A stretch of 64,000 bases of DNA from Escherichia coli (GTDB taxonomy: Bacteria; Pseudomonadota; Gammaproteobacteria; Enterobacterales; Enterobacteriaceae): assembly GCF_003334255.1 (NCBI RefSeq), contig NZ_QOWU01000002.1. The stretch is one strand, 5' to 3'. The number at the start of each line of letters is the position of its first letter. The stretch's first letter is position 1. The notes beneath the pieces are model-generated. The model was not told where the DNA came from, did not search any database, and worked only from the letters and a program-made list of their open reading frames with translations. The position numbers and the translations under genes are program-made. Shown here piece by piece: positions 60,385-60,732 of this stretch.

Positions 60385-60732
60385 TCACTTCTTCTTGTTC
60401 ATCATCGCTTTCAGGTCAGCGAATGGGTTGTACTTCGCTTCACCGACATCTTTCTGCGCATCTTCCCCTGCGATAACGGTCGTACCATACTGATCCGCTT
60501 CGGTATATTTCGAATGCTCATGATCGTGGCAATAGAGACACAACAATTCCCAGTTACTGCCATCTTCCGGGTTATTGGTATGGTCGTGATCAATGTGGTG
60601 AACGGTAAGTTCACGCAGGTTGGAATAAACAAACTCGCGGGAACAGCGACCGCAGACCCACGGATAGATTTTTAATGCTTTTTCGCGATAGCCGCTTTCT
60701 AACCGCGCATAGTTTTTTGGGATGATAGCCAT
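60385..60732 (-). CDS. yajD: HNH-endonuclease-domain protein YajD
   Basis: 115-aa ORF with CxxC...HH...N...CxxCH HNH-type motif (CGRCSRE...VHHIDHDHTNN...CLYCHDHEH). Confidence 0.9.
   Translation of the reverse strand: MAIIPKNYARLESGYREKALKIYPWVCGRCSREFVYSNLRELTVHHIDHDHTNNPEDGSNWELLCLYCHDHEHSKYTEADQYGTTVIAGEDAQKDVGEAKYNPFADLKAMMNKKK

Follow-up and report, generated by a model that had tools for sequence, protein, structure and literature searches.

Within a 64,000-nucleotide stretch of Escherichia coli DNA (assembly GCF_003334255.1, contig NZ_QOWU01000002.1; hereafter the window), we analysed yajD, a gene between tsx and secF whose product carries an HNH nuclease domain. YajD is under very strong purifying selection, with a ratio of nonsynonymous to synonymous substitutions (dN/dS) of ~0.01, and a three-part build, in which an HNH core is joined by a variable disordered linker to a conserved C-terminal peptide, is found throughout its family. 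We tentatively propose that YajD might be a small monomeric DNA nickase, dependent on metal, that acts on damaged or branched DNA and is steered to a cellular partner by its tail. The gene is already catalogued with a domain-only annotation and is not a new discovery; what is added here is the strength of its conservation, the lack of any fixed partner or position, the retention of the active site throughout the family, and a C-terminal peptide that offers a starting point for experiments.

Identity and conservation of YajD

The coding sequence and the parts of the protein discussed below are located in the window as follows.

60385..60732, minus strand: yajD coding sequence, an ATG-to-TGA open reading frame (ORF) of 115 codons plus the TGA stop, from the ORF list and translation.
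60667..60711, minus strand: N-terminal helix, residues 8-22 (YARLESGYREKALKI), a helix at 8-22 in the AlphaFold2 model.
60508..60654, minus strand: HNH (beta-beta-alpha-metal) core, residues 27-75, with the presumed zinc ligands C27, C30, C65 and C68.
60436..60504, minus strand: variable, indel-rich linker, residues 77-99, predicted to be disordered (predicted local distance difference test score, pLDDT, below 55, and below 50 at residues 87-95; high column entropy and frequent gaps).
60388..60435, minus strand: conserved C-terminal peptide, residues 100-115 (KYNPFADLKAMMNKKK), with the family motif T-[HYF]-x-P-F-A-x-L-K-x-[LM]-[LM]-K-K.

The product, which reads MAIIPKNY...NKKK over 115 amino acids (aa), contains C27-x-x-C30, H45-H46, N60, C65-x-x-C68-H69, H71 and H73. 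RefSeq annotates the ORF as yajD, which is b0410 in strain K-12 ('HNH nuclease family protein YajD'; UniProt P0AAQ2). The Pfam HNH model (PF01844) covers residues 27-75 with all of its positions, 1-47 of 47 (E = 1.5e-12), and the NCBIfam equivalog model NF008448, 'YajD family HNH nuclease', scores 210.3 bits against a cut-off of 87 (residues 2-113 of 113). A sequence-only reading of this stretch had already given the product the name YajD and had recognised a full HNH signature in it; the annotation, the two profiles and the presence of the residues from C27 to H73 bear out both points. It had also suggested a profile search for domain boundaries and distant homologs; the Pfam match places the HNH core at residues 27-75, and the family reaches into Betaproteobacteria, Desulfobacterota and Myxococcota. 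Exactly one copy of the coding sequence is present in 5425 of 5426 complete E. coli genomes, always at 90% nucleotide identity or more.

Residue conservation was counted over 373 family representatives at 40-99% identity. The four cysteines C27, C30, C65 and C68 are conserved in 96-97% of them, H45, H46 and N60 in 98-99%, H51 and H69 in 96%, H73 in 95% and E72 in 94%, and the loop N54-P55-x-D57-G58-S59-N60-W61-E62 in 97-99%; D48 and H49 are conserved in just 88%, some members having N, and G or N, in their place. The earlier reading had named the loss of catalytic residues in orthologs as the finding that would speak against a nuclease; the nine positions C27, C30, C65, C68, H45, H46, N60, H69 and H73 are instead 95-99% kept.

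The protein is 84-98% identical within Enterobacterales and 63-80% identical in Vibrio, Photobacterium, Shewanella, Colwellia, Pseudoalteromonas and Rheinheimera, and a branch of ~127 aa that is 40-60% identical occurs in Betaproteobacteria (Rhodocyclaceae, Casimicrobiaceae), Metallibacterium, Desulfobacterota and Myxococcota. The dN/dS ratio of yajD is 0.014 against Escherichia albertii and 0.008 against Pseudocitrobacter; for other genera the synonymous sites are saturated at a dN of 0.02-0.10. In nearly all yajD loci, the nucleotide similarity to E. coli ends at the ORF boundaries. Because the similarity is confined to the ORF and the synonymous sites are saturated while dN is low, YajD is ancient and very strongly constrained and not recently spread. 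We considered recent horizontal transfer as the cause of the variable position of the gene described below and ruled it out, in that nucleotide identity is only 76-83% where the protein is 84-96% identical, the similarity ends at the ORF ends, and the synonymous sites are saturated.

A three-part protein

The AlphaFold2 model, from which we took the fold, the limits of helices and strands, and the pLDDT, predicts a core at residues 11-78 with a pLDDT of 85-92, composed of a helix (8-22), two strands (42-46 and 61-65) and a second helix (66-81). YajD thus has the beta-beta-alpha-metal fold that characterises the HNH superfamily, and its strand-1-end histidine, structural asparagine and metal-ligand histidine after the second CxxC (H46, N60 and H69) are 96-99% kept. 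In the N-terminal helix, R16 and L20 are conserved in 93-94% of members. The core is followed by a stretch, roughly residues 82-100, that is disordered in the model; in the family alignments, this linker is rich in Gly, Ala, Ser and Pro and varies in length. Beyond it, the sequence is conserved again: P103, F104, A105 and L107 are kept in 80-87% of the 373 representatives and are the lowest-entropy columns of the tail among the 348 rows that reach it, and the tail motif, written as a regular expression, is found in 280 of the 345 members that extend far enough. A short C-terminal helix is modelled at residues 105-112 (pLDDT ~65) and is predicted to be amphipathic.

A homodimer, or a swap of tails between subunits, was also considered. 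A tandem YajD-linker-YajD model reached a predicted template modelling score (pTM) of 0.34 with a tail pLDDT below 50, which is a weak negative; since this model shows no confident dimer and its tails are disordered, the tail apparently does not dock on a second copy of YajD. Domain fusions were examined as hints of function and are not relied on, because the longer representatives, for example P0128 and P0194, each a single metagenomic sequence, resemble missed stops or chimeras. P0194 consists of a complete YajD, including the tail, followed by ~420 aa with BNR/Asp-box-like repeats, and in P0128 an N-terminal segment (...LLSPFDPIVWDR...), which we take to resemble YcaQ/AlkZ, is joined directly to the YajD core; in both, an assembly or gene-calling artefact is possible.

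Residues 24-49 (window 60586-60663, minus strand; P-W-V-C-G-R-C-S-R-E-F...L-T-V-H-H-I-D-H) weakly match eukaryotic C2H2 zinc fingers, SALL4, PRDM9 and ZBTB17 among them (E = 6e-4 to 3e-3). Judged by its spacing, C-x2-C...F...L-x2-H-x3-H, this match probably reflects convergence of the Cys/His pattern and not homology. A profile search of PDB sequences likewise returned just C2H2 zinc fingers through the Cys/His pattern, and a PDB sequence search found no solved structure of a close YajD relative.

Genomic context across taxa

In E. coli, yajD is bordered by yajC-secD-secF and, in the other direction, by tsx-yajI-nrdR-ribD. The sequence-only reading had placed the gene between tsx and secDF, beside a bacterial interspersed mosaic element (BIME) and with no adjoining restriction, immunity, CRISPR or toxin gene, and had seen no role evident from this context. 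The RefSeq and K-12 annotations agree with this placement and with the housekeeping nature of the neighbours, none of which is a restriction, immunity, CRISPR or toxin gene; two inverted repeat units of a BIME lie 3′ of the yajD stop, and neither E. coli nor ~95 loci from other taxa showed a conserved partner gene.

For the latter search, the ORFs of 80 species loci were clustered, 20 immediate neighbours were annotated, and distant members of the family were then added. The contexts outside E. coli were read from 12-kb loci, so that a possible second copy beside secF would lie beyond them. Among the species sampled, the order secF-yajD-tsx is kept only in Escherichia albertii, Pseudocitrobacter, Kluyvera and Citrobacter koseri. 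In the other ~75 species loci, a protein of 63-96% identity is embedded among unrelated housekeeping genes, for example nemA/speD, chiD/msrB, fadE/mtnK, a diaminobutyrate decarboxylase gene, a LysR regulator with a pyrroloquinoline quinone dehydrogenase, astE, or pstB-phoU. No neighbour family recurred in the 80 clustered loci except promiscuous ones, such as ATP-binding cassette ATPases and LysR regulators, and the distant members are likewise solitary, with neighbours that all differ.

Several individual contexts were noted. In Pantoea, the ortholog (~94% identical) resides on plasmids of 130-180 kb, as in P. vagans C9-1 pPag1 (5001-5348 of that locus) and in 60 other Pantoea plasmid records, where it adjoins a resistance-nodulation-division efflux gene and a 2-phosphosulfolactate phosphatase gene. 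A 238-kb Salmonella record labelled as a plasmid (H35) also has yajD. In L085 (1-1646) and L089 (7889-11746), two different metagenomic contexts of probably betaproteobacterial origin, a large gene for a DUF3683 FAD/Fe-S oxidase lies 2-4 kb from yajD. L089 also has a cation-efflux (CDF) gene on the yajD strand, with its end 30 nt before yajD; neither arrangement was seen in any other locus.

Putative active site and mechanism

How might such a protein act? We consider that YajD would be a small cytoplasmic nuclease of the HNH (beta-beta-alpha-metal) class. C27, C30, C65 and C68 would bind a structural zinc, in the four-cysteine site that is typical of the group to which McrA, endonuclease VII and Gmet_0936 belong. 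H46 closes strand 1, which is the place of the general base in beta-beta-alpha-metal nucleases, and in that presumed role it would activate the attacking water; the catalytic metal would be held by H45, H69 and H73, with the aid of E72 and of N60, the structural asparagine of the presumed active site. The H45/H69/H73 set is likened to the H...H-x3-H triad of the colicin DNases, and E72 aligns with E65 of T4 endonuclease VII. Because D48 and H49 are kept in only 88% of members and are sometimes replaced, we prefer H45/H46 as the catalytic pair.

The characterised proteins closest to YajD in build have damaged or branched DNA as their substrate. In the manner of the self-standing Gmet_0936 of Geobacter and of the HNH domains of ZRANB3 and T4 endonuclease VII, YajD may cut one nucleic-acid strand without much regard to sequence, damaged or branched DNA being its likeliest target. 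Since the core comprises ~70 residues, with no recognition domain and no predicted dimer, a low-specificity single-strand nickase is the most economical reading. Specificity would come from the C-terminal amphipathic peptide, which, on its flexible linker, would tether YajD to a conserved cellular partner or surface; a tether is the best explanation that we can offer for a conserved tail on such a linker. The residue-specific invariance of P-F-A-x-L favours a protein pocket over generic membrane binding, and the amphipathic, basic character of the tail would also be compatible with a MinD-like membrane helix. A more specific version, which we regard as rather improbable, is that YajD may be a housekeeping nuclease recruited by its C-terminal peptide to a universal hub, for example the replication sliding clamp, as ZRANB3 and NucS/EndoMS suggest by analogy, or the inner membrane, to which it would bind by an amphipathic helix of the MinD type. 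If this were true, Proteobacteria and Desulfobacterota would have a pathway, so far overlooked, in which damaged DNA or stalled forks are processed.

Searches of the literature with the gene name, b0410, P0AAQ2 and the family names returned no functional study of YajD. In Salmonella, loss of yajD together with cbpA or with ychN heightens sensitivity to H2O2 (PMC3878590), which agrees weakly with a role in damage tolerance.

A number of points weigh against a tail-steered DNA nickase. First, the identity of the catalytic histidine is ambiguous, in that the alignment with endonuclease VII favours D48/H49, whereas conservation and the predicted strand end favour H45/H46. Second, the tail is modelled with a pLDDT of only ~65 and mismatches the bacterial clamp-binding consensus (QL[SD]LF or QLxLxL): no conserved Gln precedes it, and the spacing differs. 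Third, 63-80% identity across gammaproteobacterial orders is unusually high for a non-specific DNA nuclease and would fit a protein in contact, over its whole surface, with conserved machinery, for instance the ribosome or RNA polymerase. Fourth, neither an operon partner nor a regulon indicative of DNA repair was found in the loci examined, and neither a LexA-type nor any other conserved operator was seen upstream of yajD. Finally, the Salmonella yajD deletion alone has no growth, stress or mouse-virulence phenotype (PMC3878590), and the searchable literature yielded no biochemical report on YajD.

Alternative explanations

Might the substrate be RNA, and not DNA? YajD could be an RNA-directed or machine-associated nuclease or factor, bound through its tail and surface to the ribosome, RNA polymerase or another universal machine, with stalled transcripts, mRNA or rRNA as its substrates. 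HNH chemistry is compatible with an RNA substrate, the basic amphipathic tail resembles tethering peptides, and both the extreme conservation (dN/dS ~0.01, 63-80% identity across orders) and the lack of a DNA-repair context in any locus examined point in the same direction. We nevertheless judge this explanation unlikely, because all close relatives with a known substrate (ZRANB3, GVE2, McrA, the Cas9 HNH domain, endonuclease VII and the phage homing enzymes) act on DNA, and no gene for a ribosome or RNA polymerase component is linked to yajD.

Very unlikely, in our view, is a non-catalytic zinc- and histidine-rich adaptor or metal-binding protein that uses the HNH fold as a scaffold, as in DotN/IcmJ. 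If the fold alone mattered, H46, N60, H69, E72 and H73 would not be expected to be 94-99% kept, and the same residues are present in an active class of phage homing enzymes. The observations that favour an adaptor are the unusually His- and Asp-rich loop H45-H51, the single mutant without a phenotype, and the CDF gene 30 nt upstream in one betaproteobacterial context, a neighbour that is not kept elsewhere.

We find it equally hard to see in YajD a domesticated or residual selfish homing endonuclease that has persisted by shifting its place on chromosomes and plasmids as a lone gene, doing little for its host. Its nearest phage relatives are indeed free-standing HNH homing endonucleases lodged in a split DNA polymerase gene, the chromosomal position of yajD varies between genera and even within Enterobacterales, the Pantoea copy is on large plasmids, and nucleotide similarity ends at the ORF limits. 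However, the dN/dS of ~0.01 and the saturated synonymous sites indicate an ancient, strongly constrained gene and not a recently spread one, the copy number is exactly one per genome in 5425 of 5426 E. coli, and the conserved tail of the family is absent from the phage enzyme. Nor does yajD have the features of a homing endonuclease gene: it is intergenic, with terminators of its own, amid intact housekeeping genes, and has no DNA-binding module or other extra domain, intron, intein or interrupted host gene.

Least probable of all is a defence nuclease, whether a minimal McrA-like type IV restriction enzyme or the effector of a system whose remaining parts are encoded at another site: a generic resemblance both to ZorE HNH models and to the HNH parts of the Cap5, retron and Septu effectors, and the Joint Genome Institute label 'McrA' for relatives, are set against a protein of 115 aa with no modification-sensing or other N-terminal domain, housekeeping neighbours everywhere and no defence island, and a core gene whose very slow protein evolution is the opposite of that of typical defence genes. 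PADLOC detected no defence system, its match to Zorya II ZorE (profile positions 213-269 of 282, E = 4e-7) being restricted to the generic HNH core, on which ground we rejected membership in a defence system; no ZorA/ZorB-like or other defence gene was found in the yajD flanks.

The interest of the gene is that it is near-universal in E. coli, evolves about as slowly as core machinery, and encodes a complete nuclease active site. A chromosomal nuclease kept so strictly must be both useful and tightly controlled. Identifying its target would add a missing piece to the picture of how enteric bacteria maintain their nucleic acids, and the tail peptide of the core-linker-tail build provides a concrete handle for a partner search.

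Transcription unit and flanking sequences

In the window, secF ends at 60861 and tsx at 60208. The features between these genes and yajD are listed below.

60812..60841, minus strand: intrinsic terminator of secF, a 13-bp stem followed by a T-run, from a terminator scan and the sequence.
60733..60811, minus strand: 5′ region of yajD, directly 3′ of the secF terminator and presumed to contain a promoter of its own.
60341..60369, minus strand: repetitive extragenic palindromic (REP) unit, one half of the BIME, directly 3′ of the yajD stop; an exact match recurs at 1282-1310 (plus) and 46051-46079 (plus).
60272..60302, plus strand: second, inverted REP unit, the other half of the BIME; a pattern match recurs at 1349-1379 (minus).
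60215..60241, no strand assigned: perfect 11-bp hairpin with A- and T-runs on its two sides, able to act as a bidirectional terminator common to tsx (plus) and yajD (minus).

yajD is an autonomous single-gene transcription unit. Because a hairpin with a T-run stands between secF and yajD, the gene lies outside the yajC-secDF operon, and in vitro work has confirmed an intrinsic terminator downstream of yajD (PMC12207403). A scan of the 79 nt between the secF terminator and the yajD start codon found no consensus sigma-70 promoter. A look-alike of a sigma-32 promoter, CTTGGG-N13-CCCTACATT, is present upstream in E. coli; it was rejected as a candidate when the upstream regions of 81 orthologs showed no enrichment over 575 controls. 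A block of ~42 nt directly 5′ of the yajD ATG (GGAAACTG-GC-TAACCCTACATTT...; window 60733-60775, minus strand) is common to E. coli, Cedecea neteri and Enterobacter sp. Ag1, despite the different upstream genes of these three, and many other enterobacterial orthologs have only ACAGGTAA-N7-9-ATG in common upstream. To judge from this block, the yajD promoter may travel with the gene in some lineages. It has also been published that a transcription pause suppressed by NusG is located inside yajD.

The REP pair recurs at 1282-1379 of the window and one unit recurs alone at ~46.05 kb, compared with 0 matches in 100 shuffles; in E. coli genomes, the REP-bearing stretch matches at a median of 17 places. 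The spacer between tsx and yajD is polymorphic in E. coli: a 701-nt stretch is matched as a whole in only 3807 of the 5426 genomes, and in those sampled from the remainder the match begins at position 180, taking in yajD and secF but leaving out the tsx end and the first REP unit. No Rfam family was found within 27 kb of yajD. The sole curated Rfam families in the window are the small RNA sraA (32521-32616, plus) and the small signal recognition particle RNA ffs (14785-14881, minus), neither of which is related to yajD.

Comparison with known systems

YajD is a full-length member of its own family, NF008448/PRK11295, with no difference from it. Among solved folds, those nearest to the YajD model are the HNH domains of ZRANB3, phage GVE2 and McrA; the comparison figures for the predicted structure are 7.3 for ZRANB3, 6.7 for phage GVE2, 6.3 for EcoKMcrA, 6.2 for Legionella DotN, 5.9 for Cap5, 5.7-5.8 for the Cas9 HNH domain and 5.4 for Gmet_0936. 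The match to EcoKMcrA covers 67 residues of the HNH part of McrA, and in the 115 aa of YajD the HNH domain alone was detected, unlike a type IV McrA restriction enzyme. A colicin- or pyocin-type DNase is also a poor parallel, as YajD has neither N-terminal delivery domains nor a small downstream ORF in an operon, its stop being followed by the BIME and terminators.

By sequence, the closest PDB chain with a domain passing the threshold is T4 endonuclease VII (PDB 1E7D/1EN7; PF02945; E = 0.008), although one zinc-finger chain, with no domain passing, scored slightly better. The two proteins have in common H-x-D-H-D-H-x-x-N-x-P...G...L-L-C-x-x-C-[NH]-x-x-E and the four-cysteine zinc site; the Pfam model Endonuclease_7 (PF02945) itself does not match YajD significantly (E = 3). 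Endonuclease VII is an obligate intertwined dimer of 157-aa chains with a C-terminal domain, whereas YajD has no such domain and no predicted dimer (pTM 0.34).

Gmet_0936 of Geobacter metallireducens (PDB 4H9D) is, like YajD, a small self-standing HNH protein, ~19% identical to it, and shows a weak Mn2+-dependent nicking of DNA with a preference for abasic-site DNA (PMC3765158). It differs in being of the D-H/N/N type and dimeric in solution; for YajD, the site reads HH...N...H-x3-H, no dimer is predicted and the C-terminal peptide is conserved. The HNH domain of human ZRANB3 (PDB 5MKW) performs structure-specific fork cleavage, stimulated through a PCNA-binding peptide at the extreme C-terminus, after the HNH domain (PMC5481773). 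Unlike YajD, ZRANB3 is a large ATP-dependent translocase, and the YajD tail matches neither the APIM motif ([KR][FYW][LIVA][LIVA][KR]) nor QL[SD]LF.

Phage genomes contain only core-domain relatives of YajD, namely free-standing HNH homing endonucleases (PHROG 25862), the best of which is that of Escherichia phage Av-05 (YP_009111209), with 51% identity over the 59-residue catalytic core and VHHIDHD-TNN...SN-ELLC-x-x-CH-x-x-EH in common. In the phage Av-05 locus (L092, 63-4919), the DNA polymerase gene is annotated in three pieces, with three HNH endonuclease genes placed between and after them; of these three, the first is the closest to the YajD core. This phage enzyme has 151 aa, a 90-aa N-terminal region and no YajD tail, and is encoded inside the split polymerase gene, whereas yajD is a single-copy core gene of the chromosome.

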